A DNA stretch of 64,000 nucleotides from Candidatus Nomurabacteria bacterium (GTDB taxonomy: Bacteria; Patescibacteriota; Minisyncoccia; Phycocordibacterales; UBA9973), in NCBI GenBank assembly GCA_026395995.1, contig JAPLXQ010000010.1, positions 218,179-282,178 of the forward strand. The letters are read 5' to 3'. Below the pieces are notes generated by a model that had not been told where the DNA came from, ran no database searches, and saw only the letters and a list, made by a program, of their open reading frames with translations. Of the stretch, positions 15,558 to 62,167 are shown one piece after another (the first letter of the stretch is position 1; each line of letters starts with the position of its first letter). Made by a program: the position numbers and the translations under genes.

Positions 15558-15578
15558 GGTTTTATATTTATTTATAGT

Positions 15579-15599
15579 GTGCAAAGTCGAACTTTGCAC
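15579..15599. repeat. REP-like 21-bp palindrome, copy 1 (inverted relative to copies 2 and 3)
   Basis: gtgcaaagtcgaactttgcac. Confidence 0.7.
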
Positions 15600-15627
15600 A
15601 AATATAATTCTTTTGTATAATTTAATT

Positions 15628-16302
15628 ATGAAAAGTAAAAATATTGCTCCCGAAGAGTATTATCATATTTACAACAGGGGAATGCAAAAACAACCTATTT
15701 TTGAAAATGACTCAGACAGGCTACGTTTTTTATTTTTGATTTTAACCTTTCAAGGTAAAGAACTTATAAAAAATATTAGTCGTGAAGTAAAACAAAATGT
15801 GCAAAGTTCGACTTTGCACATTTCTAAAGAAACAACTAAAAATGTTGCGCAAAATCGACAAGTTGAATTAGTTAGTTTTTGTTTAATGCCAAACCATTTT
15901 CATTTGATTGTAAAAGAAAAAGAAGAAGGTGGAATAGCAAAATATATGCAAAGAATTTTAACTAGCTATACAAAGTATTTTAATAAAAAATATAATAAAA
16001 GCGGACATCTTTTTCAGGGGTCTTATAAGAGTATTTTAATTGAAGATGATCGGCAGTTAATGCATTTGTCTGCCTATATTCATAAAAATCCTTCCGAAAT
16101 TAAAGGTTGGAAAAATAAAGAAGATAAATATTATTGGTCAAGTTATAATGATTATATTTATGAAAATCGTTGGGATGAATTACTTTCACAAAATATTATC
16201 CTAGATAGATATAATATAGATAAAGAAAAGGGAACTTATAAGAAATTCGTCGAAACCAGTTTAGCTAAAGAAACTGTGCAAAGTTCGACTTTGCACAGTT
16301 AA
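15628..16302 (+). CDS. REP-associated tyrosine transposase (RAYT, IS200/IS605 TnpA-like HUH enzyme)
   Basis: YHIYNRG N-terminal motif, HUH motif LMPNHFHLIV, catalytic Tyr region GHLFQGSYKS...YIHKNP; flanked by REP palindromes. Start moved to ATG 15628; the tracked N-terminus translates REP copy 1. Confidence 0.7.
   Translation: MKSKNIAPEEYYHIYNRGMQKQPIFENDSDRLRFLFLILTFQGKELIKNISREVKQNVQSSTLHISKETTKNVAQNRQVELVSFCLMPNHFHLIVKEKEEGGIAKYMQRILTSYTKYFNKKYNKSGHLFQGSYKSILIEDDRQLMHLSAYIHKNPSEIKGWKNKEDKYYWSSYNDYIYENRWDELLSQNIILDRYNIDKEKGTYKKFVETSLAKETVQSSTLHS
15799..15819. repeat. REP-like palindrome, copy 2, inside the RAYT ORF
   Basis: gtgcaaagttcgactttgcac, encodes ..VQSSTLHIS.. in frame. Confidence 0.7.
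16276..16296. repeat. REP-like palindrome, copy 3, at the RAYT 3-prime end
   Basis: gtgcaaagttcgactttgcac, encodes the C-terminal ..VQSSTLHS*. Confidence 0.7.
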
Positions 16303-36281: not shown

Positions 36282-36950
36282 GTGGGTTTTATTATGAAAA
36301 AAGATTTACAACAAAAAGCAAAGAAATTAAGAGCTGAGGGTTATTCAATTAAAGAACTTCAGAATATTTTAAATGTATCAAAGAGTACAATTTCTTTATG
36401 GGTAAGAGATATTGAACTTTCTAAAGATGCTCAAATACGCATTCAAAATAATTACACAAAAGGTCAATTGGCTTCTCAAAAAACTATACAAAAACAAACT
36501 CAAGAAAAAAATATTTTAGCTGATAGTTTCGCAGAAAATATTATCAAACAAATAGATATTTCTTTTGAAAATTCATTAGTATTGTGTTCGATGATATATC
36601 AGTGTGAGGGTAGTAAAAACATAAAAGATTCTGTTACTTTTACAAATTCTGATCCAGCTCTAATAAAGAATTTCTTGTTCTTTTTTAGAAAAAGTTTTCA
36701 TTTAGATGAAAGTAAATTCAGAGTTTTAATGCACTTACATAGTTATCATAATGAAAATACGCAAAAGAAATTTTGGTCTAATATTACAAATATTCCCACA
36801 AAAAATTTTTTAAAAACTTTCAATAAAGAAAGTACTGGTTCTTATAAAAAAGAAGGGTATCAAGGATGTATTCAAGTTCGTTATCGTGATGTTGTAATGG
36901 GTAGAAAAATTCAAGCGGTTGCAAAAAAGTTTATGGAAAGGTATAAATAG
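36282..36950 (+). CDS. HTH-domain protein with putative single-motif LAGLIDADG-like endonuclease domain (paralog A)
   Basis: N-terminal HTH (KKLRAEGYSIKELQNILNVSKSTISLWV); core LVLCSMIYQCEGSK...NSDP...FLFFFRKSF is homologous to 61541-62167 and resembles LAGLIDADG helix plus beta-sheet. Ends 8 nt before tRNA-Trp. Confidence 0.4.
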   Translation: MGFIMKKDLQQKAKKLRAEGYSIKELQNILNVSKSTISLWVRDIELSKDAQIRIQNNYTKGQLASQKTIQKQTQEKNILADSFAENIIKQIDISFENSLVLCSMIYQCEGSKNIKDSVTFTNSDPALIKNFLFFFRKSFHLDESKFRVLMHLHSYHNENTQKKFWSNITNIPTKNFLKTFNKESTGSYKKEGYQGCIQVRYRDVVMGRKIQAVAKKFMERYK

Positions 36951-39022: not shown

Positions 39023-39095
39023 GTCGGCGTAGCTCAGTTGGTAGAGCATAGCACTCATAAAGCTAAGGTCACAGGTTCAATCCCTGTCGCCGACA
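39023..39095 (+). tRNA. tRNA-Met or Ile2 (anticodon CAT; elongator-type)
   Basis: Acceptor gtcggcg/cgccgac, loop ctCATaa; lacks initiator features. Confidence 0.7.
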
Positions 39096-39154
39096 CAAAT
39101 TATAAGAAGTATATAGGGTAGTATATATTACTGTCACCATGATATAATATATAG

Positions 39155-39826
39155 GTGCCAGTCTATAAAAAGGTAAATAAAGATTTTTTTAAAAAATGGT
39201 CACCTGAAATGGCTTATGTTTTAGGTTTTTTATTTGCTGATGGAAATATTGTTCATACAAAAAGAAATACTTGGTTTTGGTCTTTACAAATTACCGATAA
39301 GGATATTTTAATAAAGATAAAAAAAGAAATTAATTCATCACATAAGGTTTCGTTTAAAAAGAAGGTTTTAAATAATAAACAGTTGTATCGTTTACAGATT
39401 GGAAGCAAAGAAATGTGTGAAGATTTAATTAAATTAGGTTTAACTCCACAAAAAAGTAAAACAATGATATTTCCACAAGTTCCAGAAAAATATTTTTCTG
39501 ATTTTTTGCGTGGTTATTTTGATGGAGATGGTGGAGTTTGGTTTGGTTTAAAAAATAAAAAAAATATTAATCAATCTTATGTAATTAATGTTTGCTTTAC
39601 TTCAGGTAGTAAAGATTTTTTAATCTTCCTGAGAGGTATTTTGAATAAAAAATCTATTTTAGGTGGTTCTTTGGTAGAAAAAGAAAGAGGGTTTGATTTA
39701 AAATATAGTATCAAAAATTCTTTGATTTTATATAAAATAATGTATAATAGTAATGTTCTCAAAAATAACCTGTTTTTAGAAAGAAAAAGAGCTATTTTTG
39801 AGAAGTTTATATGTTTGCGATCGTAG
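39155..39826 (+). CDS. LAGLIDADG homing endonuclease (double-motif, single-chain type)
   Basis: Two motifs: LGFLFADGNI and LRGYFDGDGGVWF. The stop codon overlaps the first 10 nt of the intron-containing tRNA. Confidence 0.7.
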   Translation: MPVYKKVNKDFFKKWSPEMAYVLGFLFADGNIVHTKRNTWFWSLQITDKDILIKIKKEINSSHKVSFKKKVLNNKQLYRLQIGSKEMCEDLIKLGLTPQKSKTMIFPQVPEKYFSDFLRGYFDGDGGVWFGLKNKKNINQSYVINVCFTSGSKDFLIFLRGILNKKSILGGSLVEKERGFDLKYSIKNSLILYKIMYNSNVLKNNLFLERKRAIFEKFICLRS

Positions 39827-46377: not shown

Positions 46378-47031
46378 TTAATACGTTACTCCTGGAATTA
46401 CAAAAAATCCATAAAGGACGACAGCAAAATTTATTATTGAATGACTGATAATAATCAGTGGTAAACTCGGATATCTCATATACATAATAGCGAAGCCAAG
46501 ACCGCCGACAAAAGCGAGAGGTAGGCCTATTAGTGGATTTGGAAAAATAGAATGTAAGAACATAAAAATCAAAGCGTTCACAATGACTACAATCCAAGGC
46601 TTGGAAATTAATTTTCCAAGAGCGGGGATTAGGTATCCACGATAGCCGACTTCTTGAAAAAGAGAAACAATAAAAAATCCATAAAGAAAATGGCTATGAC
46701 GCCACCAATTGGCGACTTCTTCATTACCAATTTTTTCACCAAAGAATGATATAAATACCACTGTGGCTAATGTAAATATTGTGTAAGGTATAATAAATTT
46801 TTTAATACGATAATTACTAATACCGAGCATTATAAAAGTCCATTTTTCAGCTATAAGTACTATAAATAAAAGACTGACTAAAATTACTAAAATATAGATT
46901 CTTTGATTAAGTGAAATTATTCCTATATCAATAAATAAAACTGGTAAAATAAAAACAATAAAAATTTGAGCAATGAGCTCTCTTTTGCTTGTTTTGATAT
47001 TTTCTATCATATATTGGATTTGATCGTTCAT
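46378..47031 (-). CDS. CPBP-family intramembrane glutamic endopeptidase (CAAX protease-like)
   Basis: EEVGYRGYL (EExxxR), FMFLHSIFPN (FxxxH), C-terminal HSIINF motifs. Confidence 0.6.
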   Translation of the reverse strand: MNDQIQYMIENIKTSKRELIAQIFIVFILPVLFIDIGIISLNQRIYILVILVSLLFIVLIAEKWTFIMLGISNYRIKKFIIPYTIFTLATVVFISFFGEKIGNEEVANWWRHSHFLYGFFIVSLFQEVGYRGYLIPALGKLISKPWIVVIVNALIFMFLHSIFPNPLIGLPLAFVGGLGFAIMYMRYPSLPLIIISHSIINFAVVLYGFFVIPGVTY

Positions 47032-47047
47032 AGTGATATAGTACCAT

Positions 47048-47118
47048 AATATCGTTAGCCGATATAGTTCAGTGGTAGAACATTGCTTTCGTAAAGCAGT
47101 AACGTGGGTCCGATTCCC
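47048..47118 (+). tRNA. tRNA-Thr (anticodon CGT)
   Basis: Acceptor gccgata/tttcggc (one mismatch), loop ttCGTaa. Confidence 0.65.
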
Positions 47119-47149
47119 ACTTTCGGCTCTAAAATGTTAGAATTCTTTT

Positions 47150-48037
47150 ATGCTAGAAGACACAAATCAAATTGAGCAAAAAATAAAAGAATTGGAGGAA
47201 AAAATGATCCTTCCAGATTTTTGGTCTGACAAGGTACAAGCTCAGTCTATAATAAAACACCTGGCGGAACTTAAAGATAAAAAAGAAGGTCTTGGTAAGT
47301 ACGACAAAGGTTCAGCAATTATTTCTATTTTCTCTGGAGCAGGAGGGGATGATGCTGAAGATTTTTCCAATATTCTTTTTGAAATGTATATGAAGTATGC
47401 CAAGCGTATTGGTTTTGGAATTACCTTTATTGATGAACATAAAAACGATCATGGGGGATACAGAAATGTTTCTTTTGAAATTTCTGGTAAGGGGGCATAT
47501 GGTAAATTGAAAAATGAATCGGGTGTACATCGGCTCGTGCGCATTTCACCATTCAATGCAAAAAAAATGCGTCACACTTCTTTTTCATTGGTAGAAGTTT
47601 TGCCAAAGTTTTCAAAAATGGATGAAAAAGATTTTGTCATACCGGAAGCTGATTTAAAAATAGAATTTGCTCGTGCGGGTGGTCCAGGAGGACAAAATGT
47701 GAACAAGCGTGAGACAGCAGTGCGCATAGTCCATACTCCGACAGGTCTCGCGGTGCATGCCTCTGGAGAGCGAAGCCAAGAACAAAATCGTGAACAAGCT
47801 ATGAGTATTCTTTGTGCCAAGATTTTCAAGAAAGCTCAAGAAGAAAAAAAGACTTTTGAAGAAAGTATGAAAATTTCTAAAGGGACAGAAATAGAATGGG
47901 GAAGTCAGATTCGTTCTTATGTCCTTCATCCATACAAAATGGTCAAAGACCATCGCACTGACGCTGAGACCTCAAATGTAGATGCTGTCCTCGAAGGTGA
48001 TTTAGATATTTTCATTGAAGCGGAAAAGAATCTGTAA
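47150..48037 (+). CDS. prfB: peptide chain release factor 2 (N-terminally short form)
   Basis: SPF tripeptide (RISPFN) and GGQ motif; no upstream frame-0 ORF with a CUU-UGA shift site (the tRNA ends 31 nt upstream). Confidence 0.85.
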
Positions 48038-48056
48038 AATAGACTCATTTTAAATC

Positions 48057-48085
48057 TTGACTTTTTACTAGTATAGTGCTATACT
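48057..48085 (+). promoter_or_regulatory. consensus promoter module copy 4 (TTGACT-N17-TGCTATACT), plus strand
   Basis: -35 at 48057-48062, -10 at 48080-48085; followed by a 130-nt leader containing an imperfect 18-bp inverted repeat (gtttagttttaggaattc ... gaattcttggaactaaac). Confidence 0.6.
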
Positions 48086-48221
48086 ATATGAGAGGTAAGG
48101 TTCTTTGAAAATATGGTCGTTTTGGGCTTGTTGTTTAGTTTTAGGAATTCTGATTTTTCTTGAATTCTTGGAACTAAACAATAAAAACAAAATAATCAAA
48201 AATAAATAAACAAACTTTAAA

Positions 48222-48878
48222 ATGGGAAAAACAATCAACATAGCAGATTTCAAAAAATTTCTGACTATCAACGGTATCACCGATCTCTCTGAAAATCAAA
48301 TGGAAAAATTGGCTAAAGATTCTTTTGAATCAGCTGATGATTTACAATTTTTTAAAAAATTCGGAAGACCAAGAATACGAATCAAACAGACACAATTTTC
48401 TTCTATTGAAGAAATAATAGAGGTAGGAGGACTCAACGATGGCTACTATTTACATGTGGTCGAGAACGAATTTAGCCGCAAAAAAATTTTTGCCCCAGTA
48501 ACAAATACCAATGAAGAAGAGTTGGTATTATATTGGGAAGGCGAAGGTAAGGTAATTCCTCCAGGTGGTGCTGATATTTATAAATATTTCAAATCGAAAG
48601 GTTTTGAAGTTATTGAAAAAGCTCATCCGTCACTTTTGATTAATGCAATATGGGTTCTTACCGAAGCAAAGTTAAGAGAAATAGGAATTCCAAGTAACGT
48701 GAGGATTGTTCTTCCAATAGAAGAAGATTCTTTGCTTTCTATCAAGGATCGTGGCTTGAATTACGTGAGTGTTGACCGTTATGATGGTAAACGCAGATTT
48801 GAATTTAACTGTTGTGGTGTCTACTGGAGTGGTCGCTCAGCCTTTCTTCTCCGTAAGATTAAACCTTTAGAAGTTTAA
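48222..48878 (+). CDS. hypothetical protein
   Basis: 218-aa ORF, no recognisable domain; first gene of a hypothetical-protein island. Confidence 0.45.
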   Translation: MGKTINIADFKKFLTINGITDLSENQMEKLAKDSFESADDLQFFKKFGRPRIRIKQTQFSSIEEIIEVGGLNDGYYLHVVENEFSRKKIFAPVTNTNEEELVLYWEGEGKVIPPGGADIYKYFKSKGFEVIEKAHPSLLINAIWVLTEAKLREIGIPSNVRIVLPIEEDSLLSIKDRGLNYVSVDRYDGKRRFEFNCCGVYWSGRSAFLLRKIKPLEV

Positions 48879-49011
48879 TGTTTGTTTAATTAATTATTAT
48901 TTAATCCCTTAAGCTCTAAAGAGTTTAAGGGATTTTATTTTGCGCGCATTGACTTAACCAGTTTTTAGCAGTAAAGTAAAGAAAATATACATACATTAAA
49001 AACTAAAGGAA

Positions 49012-49260
49012 ATGGAACCAAAGTATGGTGATAATTCAATTATCATATCTGGAAAATACAAGTTTACTCTTGTTAAAAATCTTCCAGTAAAATATTTATT
49101 GGATGTTTACGATGGAAGAATTAGTCATGATAAACGATTAACAGCTTATGTAAAAGAAAATATTGAAAAAATTAAAGCCAGATTAAATGGCAAAAAAGTT
49201 GTTGAAAAAAATGTGACAAGATTGCTTATATATCGAGAGAAGAAGCCAGATTTAATTTAA
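49012..49260 (+). CDS. hypothetical small protein (cassette unit 1)
   Basis: 82-aa ORF, followed by a 41-aa CxxC-containing ORF (49275-49400). Confidence 0.35.
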   Translation: MEPKYGDNSIIISGKYKFTLVKNLPVKYLLDVYDGRISHDKRLTAYVKENIEKIKARLNGKKVVEKNVTRLLIYREKKPDLI

Positions 49261-49393
49261 AAAGAATAAGAGAAATGGAAGAGCAGGTTCACAAAAAACC
49301 AATACGTTCATATGAGTGTGAAAAATGCAGTGCTTGGCATTTAACCTCAATGCCATATGAAGTCTGGAAAGAATTAGAAAAAAATCAAAAAAA

Positions 49394-49440
49394 TAAATAA
49401 TATATTAACCCCCTTGTTCGCTGTTATGGCGACTTGGGGG
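49394..49440 (+). repeat. conserved 3-prime flank element / terminator-like repeat, copy 1
   Basis: attaacccccttgttcgctgttatggcgacttgggggttttaattt; near-identical copy at 50411-50458. Confidence 0.55.
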
Positions 49441-49464
49441 TTTTAATTTATTTAATTTTTCAAA

Positions 49465-49487
49465 CCCCACAGGATAATCCTGTGGGG
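49465..49487 (+). terminator. perfect hairpin ccccacaggataatcctgtgggg
   Basis: 9-bp GC-rich stem; lacks a clear T-tail. Confidence 0.35.
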
Positions 49488-49633
49488 TAAGTTCAATCTA
49501 CGCTATAGCTGAGATGTAAAATATCTCACTTTCTGCTATCGCTAGGACTGGTGAGTGTTTTAATTATAATCTTTACTTATATATTTTTTGGTGGTAAGGT
49601 AAAGAAAATAAATCTTACATTAAAAACTAAAAA

Positions 49634-50413
49634 ATGACACAAGAAAATATAAGTATTTTGAAAAATACCACCTCAGAACAGTGGCACAGCTGGATCTCTG
49701 ATAAGTTAAATGGAAATTTTGTTTATCCTGCTTTTGATACTGATATTGCTGATGGGCTTGGATATATATTTACCCAATTTAAATCAGCAGAAATTTCTTC
49801 TGAGCAATATCAAAAAGCCTTGTTTAAAAAATTGCTTGAGATATTAAAAGATAAAAAAGAAATATCAGAGAAGAAGATGGAATACATAAAAAGATTAATG
49901 ACGGCCACTGGTTGTATTAATGAAGTTCTGGTAGTGGATGAGCTGATTGAAATATTTCTAACAAAAGAATACGAAGATATAATCTTGCCTCCATATGATG
50001 ACTTTAGCGATGATTTAAAATCATTAGTTTTAAATAGATTGGCGCGTAGCAATATAAACAATGAACAAATATTAAACAATATAGACAATTATTGTTTGAA
50101 GTCCCTTGTTAAATATTTATATAAAAATTCACAGTTCTGTGGTGAATATTTAAGATTCACTCGTTTGAAATATGGTATAGATAAGTTTTTTGATAGATTT
50201 CTTCTTGTTGTAGATGATGAGAACTTTTCAAAATCTATGAAGTCTATGTTAATAGACCAAATGGAAGAATGTAAATTTTGGAATAAAGATACTTTTCAGC
50301 AAACTTTTGATGATCATTTGCCAAATTTAAAATTAAATTGTTATTTTGAGTCACCTAAATTTGTTGATGAGTTAATATTTAGAATGAATAATTATAATTC
50401 ATTTGCTAAATAA
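49634..50413 (+). CDS. hypothetical protein (cassette unit 2)
   Basis: 259-aa ORF, no recognisable domain; its 5-prime flank resembles that of the 49012 unit. Confidence 0.45.
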   Translation: MTQENISILKNTTSEQWHSWISDKLNGNFVYPAFDTDIADGLGYIFTQFKSAEISSEQYQKALFKKLLEILKDKKEISEKKMEYIKRLMTATGCINEVLVVDELIEIFLTKEYEDIILPPYDDFSDDLKSLVLNRLARSNINNEQILNNIDNYCLKSLVKYLYKNSQFCGEYLRFTRLKYGIDKFFDRFLLVVDDENFSKSMKSMLIDQMEECKFWNKDTFQQTFDDHLPNLKLNCYFESPKFVDELIFRMNNYNSFAK

Positions 50414-50458
50414 TAATATTAACCTCCTTGTTCGCTTTTATAGCGGGCTCGGGGGTTT
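50411..50458 (+). repeat. conserved 3-prime flank element, copy 2
   Basis: attaacctccttgttcgcttttatagcgggctcgggggttttatttt. Confidence 0.55.
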
Positions 50459-50516
50459 TATTTTGTCTTCTTGTCTTAAATTTTTGTTTTCTGATATAAT
50501 AGATGGATATTCTATT

Positions 50517-51197
50517 ATGATTAATTTCAATAATGTTTCAAAAGTGTATAGTCAAGATTCTGTGGCATTACGAGATGTGAATTTTTCAGTCTCCGCAGGT
50601 GAATTCATATCTGTCGTTGGACATTCTGGTGCTGGAAAGAGTACTTTAATTAAAATGGTATTAGCCGATGAAAAACCAACAGAAGGTACAGTCTTTTTTG
50701 AATCTGTTGATATCCACAAACTAGGAAATAAAGAACTCACAAAGCTTCGCCGAAGAATTGGAGCTGTTTTTCAGGATTTTCGTCTTTTGCCAAACAAAAC
50801 TGCTTATGAAAACATAGCTTTTGCTATGGAAGCCTCTGGAAAAACTGATGAAGAAATAGCTAGTGATGTGCCTCATGTGCTAGAACTTGTCGATTTGACC
50901 AATAGATTGAGCCATTTTCCACACCAAATGTCTGGTGGAGAAAAACAACGCCTTGCTATTGCTCGCGCTATTATCAACCAGCCTGAATTAATCATTGCCG
51001 ATGAACCGACAGGTAATCTGGATCCTGTGAATGCTTTTGAAGTGATACAAATTTTGAAAAAGATAAATGATCTGGGTACAACGGTTATTTTGACTACTCA
51101 CAATAGGGGCGTAGTCGAATCCATCGGCAAACGTGTCATTACAATGGAAAAAGGTAAAATAATTAGAGATGATAAAGATGGTAAGTATGTGATATAA
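50517..51197 (+). CDS. ftsE: cell-division ABC transporter ATP-binding protein FtsE
   Basis: Walker [10 protein letters not shown], signature LSGGEKQR, Walker [12 protein letters not shown]; extended -10 TGATATAAT at 50491-50500. Start moved to MINFNNV. Confidence 0.85.
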
Positions 51198-51209
51198 TAA
51201 AAATAAATT

Positions 51210-52127
51210 ATGACAGAATTAAAACGAATAATTAAAGCCGGATTTGTAAATTTTTCCAGAAATGGAATTATTTCATGGTCTGCAGTTTTAATCATTACGA
51301 TCACTCTTTCAGTAATCGGTTCACTTATTTTCCTGCAAGCAGTATTACATTCTTCTTTAGATCAAATGAAAGAGAAAGTAGATATAACTATTTATTTTAA
51401 TACAGGAGCACAAGATTCTGAAATGATGGCCCTAAAAGCCAATATTGAAAAATTACCAGAAGTAGCAAGTACAGAATTTGTCTCTTCAGCTGAAGCATTG
51501 CAGACTTTCCGTGATCGTCACAAAGATGATTATCCTACTATCCAAGCTCTCGATGAAATAGGAATAAATCCACTCGGTGCCTTTTTGAATATCAAAGCAA
51601 AAGAAATAAATCAATATGAAAGTATTTCCAATTTCTTGAAGAGTGATAATGTCTTAGTTTCTGGTTCAAATTCTATTATTGATAAAGTAAACTATAATCA
51701 AAATAAATTAGTCATTGATCGTTTGAGTTCAATAATAAACGGAGCAGAAAAACTTGGCTTTATTGTGACTCTAATCTTCATCTTAATATCTTTAATTATT
51801 GCTTATAACACTATTCGTTTGGCTATCTTTATGTCTCGTGAAGAGATTTCCGTTATGCGTTTAGTCGGAGCAAGTAAATTGCGTATTCGAGGTCCATTTA
51901 TGGTAGAAGGCGCTATTTATGGTTTAATAGCCACCGTGATAACAATGCTTATTTTTTGGCCATCGACAGTCTGGTTTGGTAGTCATATGACCTTATTCTT
52001 AGGAATGAATATTTATGATTATTTTACTTCAAATTTCTTTCAAATTTTCTTTATTGTGCTATTATCAGGGATTCTGCTTGGGATGATATCTTCCTCTTTT
52101 GCAGTACGTAGGTATTTAAATAAGTAA
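51210..52127 (+). CDS. ftsX: cell-division permease FtsX
   Basis: Follows ftsE; four TM helices with a large extracellular loop; FtsX-like C-terminal TM block. Confidence 0.8.
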   Translation: MTELKRIIKAGFVNFSRNGIISWSAVLIITITLSVIGSLIFLQAVLHSSLDQMKEKVDITIYFNTGAQDSEMMALKANIEKLPEVASTEFVSSAEALQTFRDRHKDDYPTIQALDEIGINPLGAFLNIKAKEINQYESISNFLKSDNVLVSGSNSIIDKVNYNQNKLVIDRLSSIINGAEKLGFIVTLIFILISLIIAYNTIRLAIFMSREEISVMRLVGASKLRIRGPFMVEGAIYGLIATVITMLIFWPSTVWFGSHMTLFLGMNIYDYFTSNFFQIFFIVLLSGILLGMISSSFAVRRYLNK

Positions 52128-61540: not shown

Positions 61541-62167
61541 ATGAGAGGTATACAAACTTCTAATAAAATAGTTCAAGAAATTAAAAAACTTAGATCTGAA
61601 GGGGATAGTATTCTTGAGATATCAAAAATAGTTGGTAAAAGTAAGTCTATTGTTTCAAAATACGTTAAAGATATAAAAATTCTTCCACAGTATGAATATC
61701 TTCTAAAAGAAAAACAAGGAGGTAGTAAGTCGCGTTCTTTAAAAGAGTGGAAGGATTCAGAGATAAAATCAAAAAAAATAATTAATACTCTTTCTAGTAA
61801 AGAAAAATTATTAATTCTAGCATGTTTATATTGGGGAGAAGGAACTAAAACTGAACTTAATATTATAAATAGTGATCCAGAAATGCTTCGGGTTTTTATA
61901 ATTTCTTTAAAAGAATTAGGAATAGATAATTCTAAAATAAAAGCAACAATAAGAATTTATGAAGATTTAAAAGATAACGATATTATTAATTTTTGGTCAA
62001 AGGCTATTGATCTTCCAAAAGAATGTTTTAAAGGTATTAATTTATTAAAAGGTAAAAAAGTTGGTAAATTAAAACATGGTATGTGTAGAATAAGGGTTGA
62101 AAAAAGTAAAGATTACTTTAAACTAATTATGTCTATAATAGAAAGAATTAAAGACTTGTCCTTATAG
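61541..62167 (+). CDS. HTH-domain protein with putative single-motif LAGLIDADG-like endonuclease domain (paralog B)
   Basis: HTH (KKLRSEGDSILEISKIVGKSKSIVSKYV); LILACLYWGEGTKTELNIINSDPEMLRVFIISLKELGI resembles the LAGLIDADG helix plus following beta-sheet. The stop overlaps tRNA-Arg by 10 nt. Confidence 0.4.
   Translation: MRGIQTSNKIVQEIKKLRSEGDSILEISKIVGKSKSIVSKYVKDIKILPQYEYLLKEKQGGSKSRSLKEWKDSEIKSKKIINTLSSKEKLLILACLYWGEGTKTELNIINSDPEMLRVFIISLKELGIDNSKIKATIRIYEDLKDNDIINFWSKAIDLPKECFKGINLLKGKKVGKLKHGMCRIRVEKSKDYFKLIMSIIERIKDLSL

Follow-up and report, generated by a model that had tools for sequence, protein, structure and literature searches.

Between the housekeeping genes prfB and ftsE, a Candidatus Nomurabacteria genome carries two tandem gene units that encode unrelated proteins yet share a similar 5′ leader and a similar 3′ element (T47), and the question raised by this locus is how such an arrangement arose. 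The DNA analyzed here, which we call the window, is a 64-kb stretch (64,000 nucleotides) of an approximately 287-kb contig from a metagenome-assembled genome (MAG) of this member of the candidate phyla radiation (CPR). CPR genomes are tiny and streamlined, and how they acquire and shed accessory genes is poorly understood. An original prediction, made from the window sequence, had likened the two units to integron cassettes or a diversity island. We consider it probable that window positions 48038 to 50460 form a strain-specific, recombination-driven variable islet of self-contained modules and not an integron. The islet consists of three units, each with a predicted σ70-like promoter, one gene, and a predicted terminator composed of a hairpin and a T-run. 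The gene order across the region is an Rce1-like gene (minus strand), tRNA-Thr(cgt), prfB, a 218-aa gene, unit 1, unit 2, ftsE, ftsX, and pyrG. The flanks named by the original prediction, tRNA-Thr, release factor 2 (RF2, with its SPF motif), and ftsE/ftsX/pyrG, are all present as described. In the NCBI annotation, the 218-aa gene is NT068_03245, the 82-aa open reading frame (ORF) of unit 1 is NT068_03250, and the 259-aa gene of unit 2 is NT068_03260.

Comparison of the prfB-ftsE interval across relatives bears out the diversity-island part of that prediction, since its content varies from one gene to three units. We compared the window with sister-strain ENA/Logan contigs (L011 to L015), which carry protein P0003, and with a cousin (L008, GCA_026395955.1; L009; and L010), which carries P0002. 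Flank identity to the window is 96.3 to 97.7% for L011 to L015 and about 82% for L008 to L010. In all of these relatives the gap holds only a small gene of 127 or 131 aa, whereas the window holds three units, so that two gap allele types were sampled. Related strains with different alleles occur in one run series, in which SRR20698640 and SRR20698641 contain the L008 type and SRR20698644 contains the window type. The features on which the comparison turns are as follows.

47150 to 48037, plus strand: prfB (RF2, 295 aa), the conserved left anchor, with PCRF and RF-1 domains in orthologs.
48949 to 49011, plus strand: leader 1, from alignment, a promoter-like TTGACT-17-TAAAGT (48949 to 48977) and a 5′ untranslated region (5′UTR) ending ACATTAAAAACTAAAGGAA before the ATG.
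49012 to 49400, plus strand: the unit 1 gene, identified by homolog alignment and synonymous divergence (dS) as a divergent version of the resident small gene, 129 aa once repaired.
49394 to 49449, plus strand: T47-1, from alignment and folding, a stop-codon context, a GC-rich hairpin (49407 to 49442), and a T-run.
49464 to 49488, plus strand: a perfect 11-bp hairpin, CCCCACAGGATAATCCTGTGGGG, located in L011 directly 3′ of the prfB stop codon.
49487 to 49571, plus strand: a non-coding stretch, X, 100% identical to L011 to L015 despite a backbone difference of about 3%.
49572 to 49633, plus strand: leader 2, with the resident promoter-like region TTTACT-17-TAAGGT (49572 to 49600), identical to L011 up to 49616.
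49634 to 50413, plus strand: the 259-aa gene, sitting where the sister strain has the small gene.
50407 to 50464, plus strand: T47-2, from alignment and folding, a stop-codon context, a GC-rich hairpin (50421 to 50457), and a T-run.
50471 to 50500, plus strand: a promoter-like site of ftsE, TTGTCT-18-TATAAT, kept in L011 and L008.
50517 to 51197, plus strand: ftsE (226 aa, ATG at 50517), the conserved right anchor.

Alignment with L011 breaks off at the prfB stop codon (48038) and picks up again at 50461, within the T-run of T47-2. Relative to L011, the window contains an insertion (48039 to 49450) comprising the 218-aa unit, leader 1, the small-gene copy, and T47-1, and a replacement in which the L011 gene and its terminator hairpin (408 bp) give way to window 49635 to 50460, containing the 259-aa gene and the T47-2 hairpin. 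Window 49451 to 49634 matches the sequence that follows prfB in L011, consisting of the hairpin, the 85-nt stretch X, and the promoter, and 130 nt of this segment (49484 to 49616) are 100% identical to L011. The 11-bp hairpin differs between the two strains by compensatory changes (CACAGG/CCTGTG in the window versus CATAGG/CCTATG in L011), and the hairpin together with X (49464 to 49571; L011 1862 to 1970) matched no Rfam family. From 49617 the window reads ACATTAAAAACTAAAAA-ATG, which is leader 1 sequence, whereas L011 reads GTTTAAAAATTGAAGAAA-ATG. This abrupt switch from L011 to leader 1 sequence suggests a recombination junction inside the 5′UTR of unit 2, 17 nt before the ATG.

Divergence within the gap is discordant with that of its surroundings. 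The dS of the small gene is 0.55 between the window and L011, 0.58 between the window and L008, and 0.56 between L008 and L011, while the backbones of the window and L011 differ by only about 3%. These values point to at least one of the two close strains having taken its gap allele from a lineage roughly as far removed as L008. In the right flank, mismatches are also denser over the first 300 nt than beyond, at 20 per 300 nt versus about 2%. Exact-protein look-ups of the window RF2, FtsE, and FtsX for additional strains returned no record.

Unit 1 had been described as an 82-aa ORF plus a 41-aa CxxC ORF, and we found both to be halves of one gene. Adding a single A to the A7 run at 49205 to 49211 yields a 129-aa protein joining the two ORFs, which aligns end to end with the 127-aa (P0002) and 131-aa (P0003) proteins at 79 to 80% identity and 98% coverage; more distant matches are proteins of 135 to 140 aa. 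At the A7 site the orthologs read GAAATAAAATGT and GAAATTAAATGT and the window reads GAAAAAAATGT, and because the orthologs are in frame there, the window carries a 1-nt deletion. The lesion is also present in an independent Logan assembly. A programmed frameshift behind the split was rejected in favor of the deletion on the same grounds, and transcriptional slippage on the A7 run is a possible account. Phage homology supports a single gene as well, since a match to PHROG 3424 (E = 5e-7; residues 70 to 125 of the repaired protein) and phage tblastn matches (residues 68 to 116) begin upstream of the ATG of the 41-aa ORF (residue 89) and need the repaired frame. In relatives, the small gene (127 to 131 aa) encodes an N-terminal part, GKYKF...YLL, and a Cys-rich C-terminal part, ...YECxxCSAWHLTS, the latter of which also occurs in phage proteins. 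The dN/dS (nonsynonymous to synonymous divergence) of the window gene against its relatives is 0.21 to 0.23, indicating mostly purifying selection. Because such selection would have acted over most of the history of the gene, its inactivation appears to be recent.

Wider searches with the small-gene alignment returned two distant loci only in a metagenome scan, neither with T47 or the leader, no match in a viral scan, and nothing meaningful in a PDB sequence search, for which this alignment was the sole query. One of the two is L142 (4000 to 8300), where a homolog with 41% identity to the small gene lies among tightly packed short ORFs on the same strand, followed by a 632-aa ORF. This run of ORFs looks phage-like, fitting the PHROG and phage matches of the Cys-rich C-terminal domain.

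The similar leaders of the two units were confirmed, with about 80% identity over about 62 nt (48949 to 49011 versus 49572 to 49633), a shared identical 16-mer, and the block TACATTAAAAACTAAA identical in both right before the ATG. A 33-nt leader pattern and a 15-mer had no further exact copy in the 64 kb, where shuffles expect 0. In a four-way alignment the leader is homologous across L008, L011, and both window units, corresponding to the small gene's own upstream region, and what had been read as a conserved leader thus appears to be the native promoter and 5′UTR of the gap's resident small gene.

The 47-bp 3′ element had been called near-identical between the units. A shared element exists, with the two copies having 81% identity over 48 nt (49402 to 49449 versus 50416 to 50463) or, by BLAST, 86% over 58 nt (49394 to 49449 versus 50407 to 50464), which falls short of near-identity. 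Similarity extends beyond the hairpin, from the stop codon into the T-run. The hairpins have folding energies of -21.9 and -21.3 kcal/mol (z = -4.8 and -5.8) and are followed by TTTTAATTT or TTTTATTTT, so that both T47 copies look like intrinsic terminators. The 18-mer TTAACCYCCTTGTTCGCT occurs exactly twice in the 64 kb (shuffles expect 0.09), as does the hairpin-shaped pattern AACCYCC-N15-35-GGRGGTT (shuffles expect 0.00). The exact T47 core (16 to 18 nt) had six matches in GTDB species representatives, which lay in unrelated phyla, did not complete the hairpin, and are attributable to chance, and six chance matches without a hairpin in IMG/VR. The leader 16-mer had more than 120 matches in IMG/VR and is an AT-rich, low-information motif. 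In a sensitive BLAST of T47, the leaders, and the hairpin with X against 154 fetched loci, T47 was found in the same strain only, and the hairpin with X and the 5′ part of leader 2 were found only in L011 to L015. With two copies in 64 kb and none in the fetched related loci, T47 is not the common terminator after many unrelated genes that the original prediction had allowed for.

In L008 and L011, the place of T47 is taken by another, smaller hairpin, AAAACCAT...ATGGTTTTTTT, within a shared TAAT.TA.TA...T-run context. Compared with the 3′ flank of the small gene in L011 and L008, the GC-rich hairpin of T47, about 35 nt, appears as an indel, and we read T47 as a terminator variant that accompanies the window's type of small gene. 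An Rfam scan of 47000 to 51000 returned tRNA and one sub-threshold match only, to the "23S-methyl" cis-regulatory motif at 50373 to 50462 (plus strand), spanning the end of the 259-aa gene and T47-2 (28.3 bits versus a gathering score of 50; E = 0.15). This match is probably a generic resemblance to a terminator hairpin.

Consistent with the original prediction, the coding content of unit 2 is unrelated to that of unit 1 (hhalign probability, 0.3%). A word-indexed search with the 259-aa protein matched only itself, whereas a full HMMER pass recovered 12 remote full-length homologs (24 to 32% identity), one of them from another Nomurabacteria MAG. The homologs occur in unrelated contexts, for example at L151 and L154. 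AlphaFold2 with the homolog alignment gave a predicted local distance difference test score of 87 and a predicted template modeling score of 0.85, a confident prediction of an all-helical solenoid from a very sparse family; the predicted fold matched just generic HEAT/TOG-like structures (E of at least 0.03). GC content across the gene (49634 to 50413) is 25 to 29%, versus about 32 to 34% in neighboring genes, which is consistent with a foreign or fast-evolving origin.

The third unit of the islet lies next to prfB and comprises the following predicted features.

48057 to 48085, plus strand: a promoter-like site, TTGACT-17-TATACT by sequence, with TG before the -10 element.
48222 to 48878, plus strand: the 218-aa hypothetical gene, which has no counterpart in the prfB-ftsE gap of the relatives.
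48903 to 48944, plus strand: an intrinsic-terminator-like hairpin and T-run, AATCCCTT...AAGGGATTTTATTTT, by sequence and folding.

Five homologs of the 218-aa protein, with about 51% identity, are encoded on other CPR contigs in differing neighborhoods. In L144, the family member lies after ruvA and before a reverse transcriptase gene (RVT_1), and in L147 and L148 it follows a gene for a tRNA-binding protein and precedes an IS200-like Y1_Tnp gene. The promoter-like sequence TTGACTTTTT...TGCTATAYT is common to the window unit and the region upstream of the 215-aa homolog in L147, and a terminator-like AATCCCTT...AAGGGATTTTT, similar to that in the window, is found 3′ of the homologs in L147 and L144. 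Given these similarities, the whole transcription unit appears to move as a module. The 218-aa, small-gene, and 259-aa proteins had no above-threshold match in Pfam, PADLOC, or NCBIfam.

Other observations concern the surroundings of this family. Directly 3′ of the family gene in L147 (6649 to 6775) and L148 is the Y1_Tnp gene with a small upstream hairpin, and 3′ of the family gene in L144 (6640 to 7470) are about 800 nt of non-coding DNA and then the reverse transcriptase gene; the spot just past the terminator of these genes seems to attract mobile elements. In the window, the leader of the 218-aa gene (48086 to 48221) contains a 34-aa ORF with a TTG start, MKIWSFWACCLVLGILIFLEFLELNNKNKIIKNK (48105 to 48209, plus strand), with GAGAGGTAAGG upstream. 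Its product has a hydrophobic helix followed by a Lys-rich tail, and the ORF overlaps an inverted repeat (48120 to 48150 and 48162 to 48192, 77% complementary). The ORF may encode a small membrane peptide or a leader peptide, or it may be due to chance.

The explanation we favor, a recombination-driven islet, starts from the repeats, hairpins, frameshift, strain differences, sharp junctions, and discordant divergence observed at the locus; from these we infer the direction and order of events and the recombination route. Unit 1 would have arisen when a deeply diverged small-gene allele arrived at the prfB side, either along with the roaming 218-aa unit or adjacent to it, and would then have been knocked out recently by the 1-nt deletion in the A-run. 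In unit 2, a segment that starts 17 nt ahead of the start codon and extends to the terminator hairpin would have been swapped for the 259-aa gene on the resident promoter, with the incoming gene carrying a unit 1-type leader end and a T47-type terminator. The shared flanks would be regulatory sequences of the resident gene that were duplicated and re-used and that served, or were left, as homology arms. Related lineages would trade gap alleles through homologous or homology-facilitated illegitimate recombination, with no site-specific recombinase.

Several points weigh against a recombination-driven islet as set out here. The extra mismatches in the right flank are mostly specific to L011, and this sister strain, which also bears a recombination footprint, may be the changed one. 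A donor lineage with the leader-gene-T47 arrangement was not found, the closest small-gene copies being about 80% identical, and a T47-type flank would have to exist elsewhere; the scan for T47 and leader copies covered 64 kb of the approximately 287-kb contig. The boundaries of the replacement lie almost exactly at the start and stop codons, neater than random recombination, and such boundaries need selection for expressed recombinants or crossovers in short conserved flanks. Finally, the promoter and terminator activities ascribed to the three units are predictions from sequence.

Some features of the islet may have arisen without import. An in situ tandem duplication of the promoter, leader, small gene, and T47, in which the 259-aa gene later took the place of the second copy's coding part, would agree with two units in tandem, direct repeats at both ends, and a leader native to the small gene. 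We find this account unlikely, although it retains some weight. The flanks of the units differ by 14 to 23%, the small gene has a dS of about 0.55 against the sister in a backbone differing by only about 3%, and the 130 nt upstream of unit 2 that are 100% identical to L011 favor recent exchange. The duplication would also far predate the L011 split, and one would have to assume both a deletion and an independent exchange of the terminator in L011. Another account takes T47 to be a small mobile GC-rich palindrome, similar to a repetitive extragenic palindromic (REP) sequence or a miniature inverted-repeat transposable element and possibly moved by a Y1/HUH enzyme, that inserted independently after two genes, with the similarity of the leaders being a separate matter. 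The insertion-like appearance of the hairpin of about 35 nt when compared with the L011 and L008 3′ flanks, an IS200-like Y1_Tnp ORF in the window (15577 to 16299), and the Y1_Tnp gene adjoining a relative of the 218-aa gene speak for it. We nevertheless hold it to be improbable, as T47 has two copies in 64 kb and none in the fetched related loci, exact-core matches in GTDB and IMG/VR were by chance only, and similarity runs past the hairpin into the stop-codon context and T-run, while the Y1_Tnp ORF lies 33 kb away, is squeezed between genes, and lacks terminal hairpins.

Site-specific exchange would account for unrelated genes within conserved boundaries that coincide with gene ends, the 3′ boundary being an imperfect hairpin. 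One form of this idea is an integron-like cassette array with T47 as an attC-like site and the leader as the other boundary, to which we assign very little probability. No integron integrase or tyrosine recombinase was recognized among the window ORFs of at least 150 aa, all of which were read and the ten unclear ones scanned against Pfam. The attC core consensus consists of R″ (RYYYAAC) and R′ (GTTRRRY) bounding an imperfect palindrome, and the ends of T47 (TATTAAC ... GTTTTAA) misfit it. Furthermore, there are two copies only, the units have their own promoter-like sites, and the 5′ boundary is the resident gene's native 5′UTR. Given these findings, and with unit 1 being one gene, the likeness to integron cassettes in the original prediction does not hold. 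A different form is a real CPR cassette-exchange system swapping whole coding regions, with the 5′UTR end ACATTAAAAACTAAA and the T47 hairpin as its boundaries, which we think quite improbable. The hairpin would be recognized by an enzyme encoded elsewhere, for example a Y1/HUH protein such as that at 15577 to 16299, or exchange would proceed by a dedicated flank-homology mechanism; if real, this would be an "expression slot" letting ultra-small genomes sample accessory genes. An artifact of metagenome assembly, in which two strain alleles were joined in tandem, might be suspected from the co-occurrence of related strains with different gap alleles in the same run series. We give it almost no credence, since an independent Logan contig is 100% identical over 49071 to 51710, including the T47-1, hairpin, X, leader 2, 259-aa gene, T47-2, and ftsE junctions. 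In addition, the two units share no exact repeat of more than 16 nt, a length that would not confuse a k-mer assembler; the junction at 49440 to 49470 has a unique sequence; and neither allele by itself corresponds to a known strain.

Read as a recombination-driven islet, the locus is a base-resolved case of three stand-alone modules where a 97%-identical sister has one gene, in which regulatory flanks would travel with, and be re-used by, incoming genes and a resident gene would be caught just after inactivation. The three uncharacterized protein families are candidates for strain-level adaptation, such as phage or host interaction. Turnover of genes lying between conserved neighbors is already familiar, and the islet is a new CPR instance of ordinary gene turnover with no new mechanism. 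Less usual is that the junctions lie at the 5′UTR and the terminator, so that the swap involves almost exactly one coding region. Interest would rise if T47 and the leader bounded many genes across Nomurabacteria, and the evidence from 64 kb and a handful of relatives is against this.

Elsewhere in the window, the only mobility-type domains recognized among ORFs of at least 150 aa are Y1_Tnp at 15577 to 16299 and LAGLIDADG at 39155. The IS200-like Y1_Tnp ORF (plus strand; Pfam E = 3.6e-14) is separated from its neighbors by spacers of about 20 nt and 8 nt, too short to accommodate transposon ends, and so resembles a HUH/Y1 gene that stands alone or has been domesticated. Three ORFs of about 210 to 220 aa (plus strand; 36282 to 36950, 39155 to 39826, and 61541 to 62167) lie within about 60 nt of, or overlap, tRNA genes. 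The ORF at 36282 precedes tRNA-Trp (36958) and encodes an N-terminal helix-turn-helix, the ORF at 39155 follows tRNA-Met (39023 to 39096) and encodes a LAGLIDADG_3 domain, and the ORF at 61541 overlaps the start of tRNA-Arg (62158) and resembles the 36282 ORF by eye. These three may be free-standing homing-endonuclease-like genes. At the left anchor (47058 to 48037), RF2 is just 295 aa, as it is in relatives, with its start 20 nt past tRNA-Thr(cgt). The protein appears to be N-terminally short, no upstream frameshift segment is visible, and the usual programmed +1 frameshift is apparently missing. Neither tRNA-Thr gene shares a k-mer of at least 10 nt with 48000 to 50700, and a tRNA-targeting integrative element was rejected because the islet is not bounded by a tRNA-derived direct repeat and no integrase was recognized among the window ORFs of at least 150 aa.

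Set beside known systems, the islet resembles an integron in that unrelated tandem ORFs are each followed by a related imperfect palindrome. Integron cassettes are mostly promoterless and expressed from Pc. In contrast, the islet has no intI, attI, or Pc within the scope of the window, its palindromes depart from the attC consensus, its two units carry promoter-like sites, and its 5′ boundary is a native 5′UTR. With short GC-rich hairpins 3′ of its genes against an AT-rich genomic background, and with a Y1_Tnp-like gene in the window, the locus recalls REP/REPIN elements and their REP-associated tyrosine transposases (RAYTs, Y1 family). Unlike those elements, T47 has two copies in 64 kb rather than tens or hundreds, is absent at the Y1_Tnp gene, and shows similarity beyond the hairpin.

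Idiomorphic or allelic replacement loci have unrelated sequences at one locus between conserved flanks, and the 259-aa gene likewise lies behind the same promoter at the exact place of the sister's unrelated 131-aa gene. The window differs in holding both "alleles" in tandem, with one decaying. A phage moron, as described by Hendrix and colleagues, is a gene that has been inserted between two others and brings along its own promoter and factor-independent terminator. All three units have this promoter-gene-terminator layout and lie between unrelated genes, and the 218-aa unit keeps a similar promoter (window and L147) and terminator (all three genomes) across neighborhoods. Unlike a moron, the units are in a chromosomal housekeeping setting with no prophage genes nearby, and only the C-terminal domain of the small gene has phage relatives.

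The minimal mobile elements (MMEs) of Neisseria differ from the islet in that here the host is a CPR bacterium, the scale is 0.4 to 2.4 kb, and the junctions lie inside the gap, in the 5′UTR and terminator T-run, and not within the genes on either side; for the islet, natural transformation and homologous recombination are at most candidate routes. The likeness consists of conserved anchors (prfB and ftsE), gene content that varies among strains, sharp junctions, and no element-encoded recombinase. Two conserved flanking genes are found in the window and in L008 to L015, and differing whole-gene cassettes lie between them in the two allele types sampled. As would be expected if such cassettes were exchanged by recombination, the islet has no mobility gene and combines sharp junctions with 130 nt of identity to the sister strain, discordant dS, and raised mismatches in ftsE.

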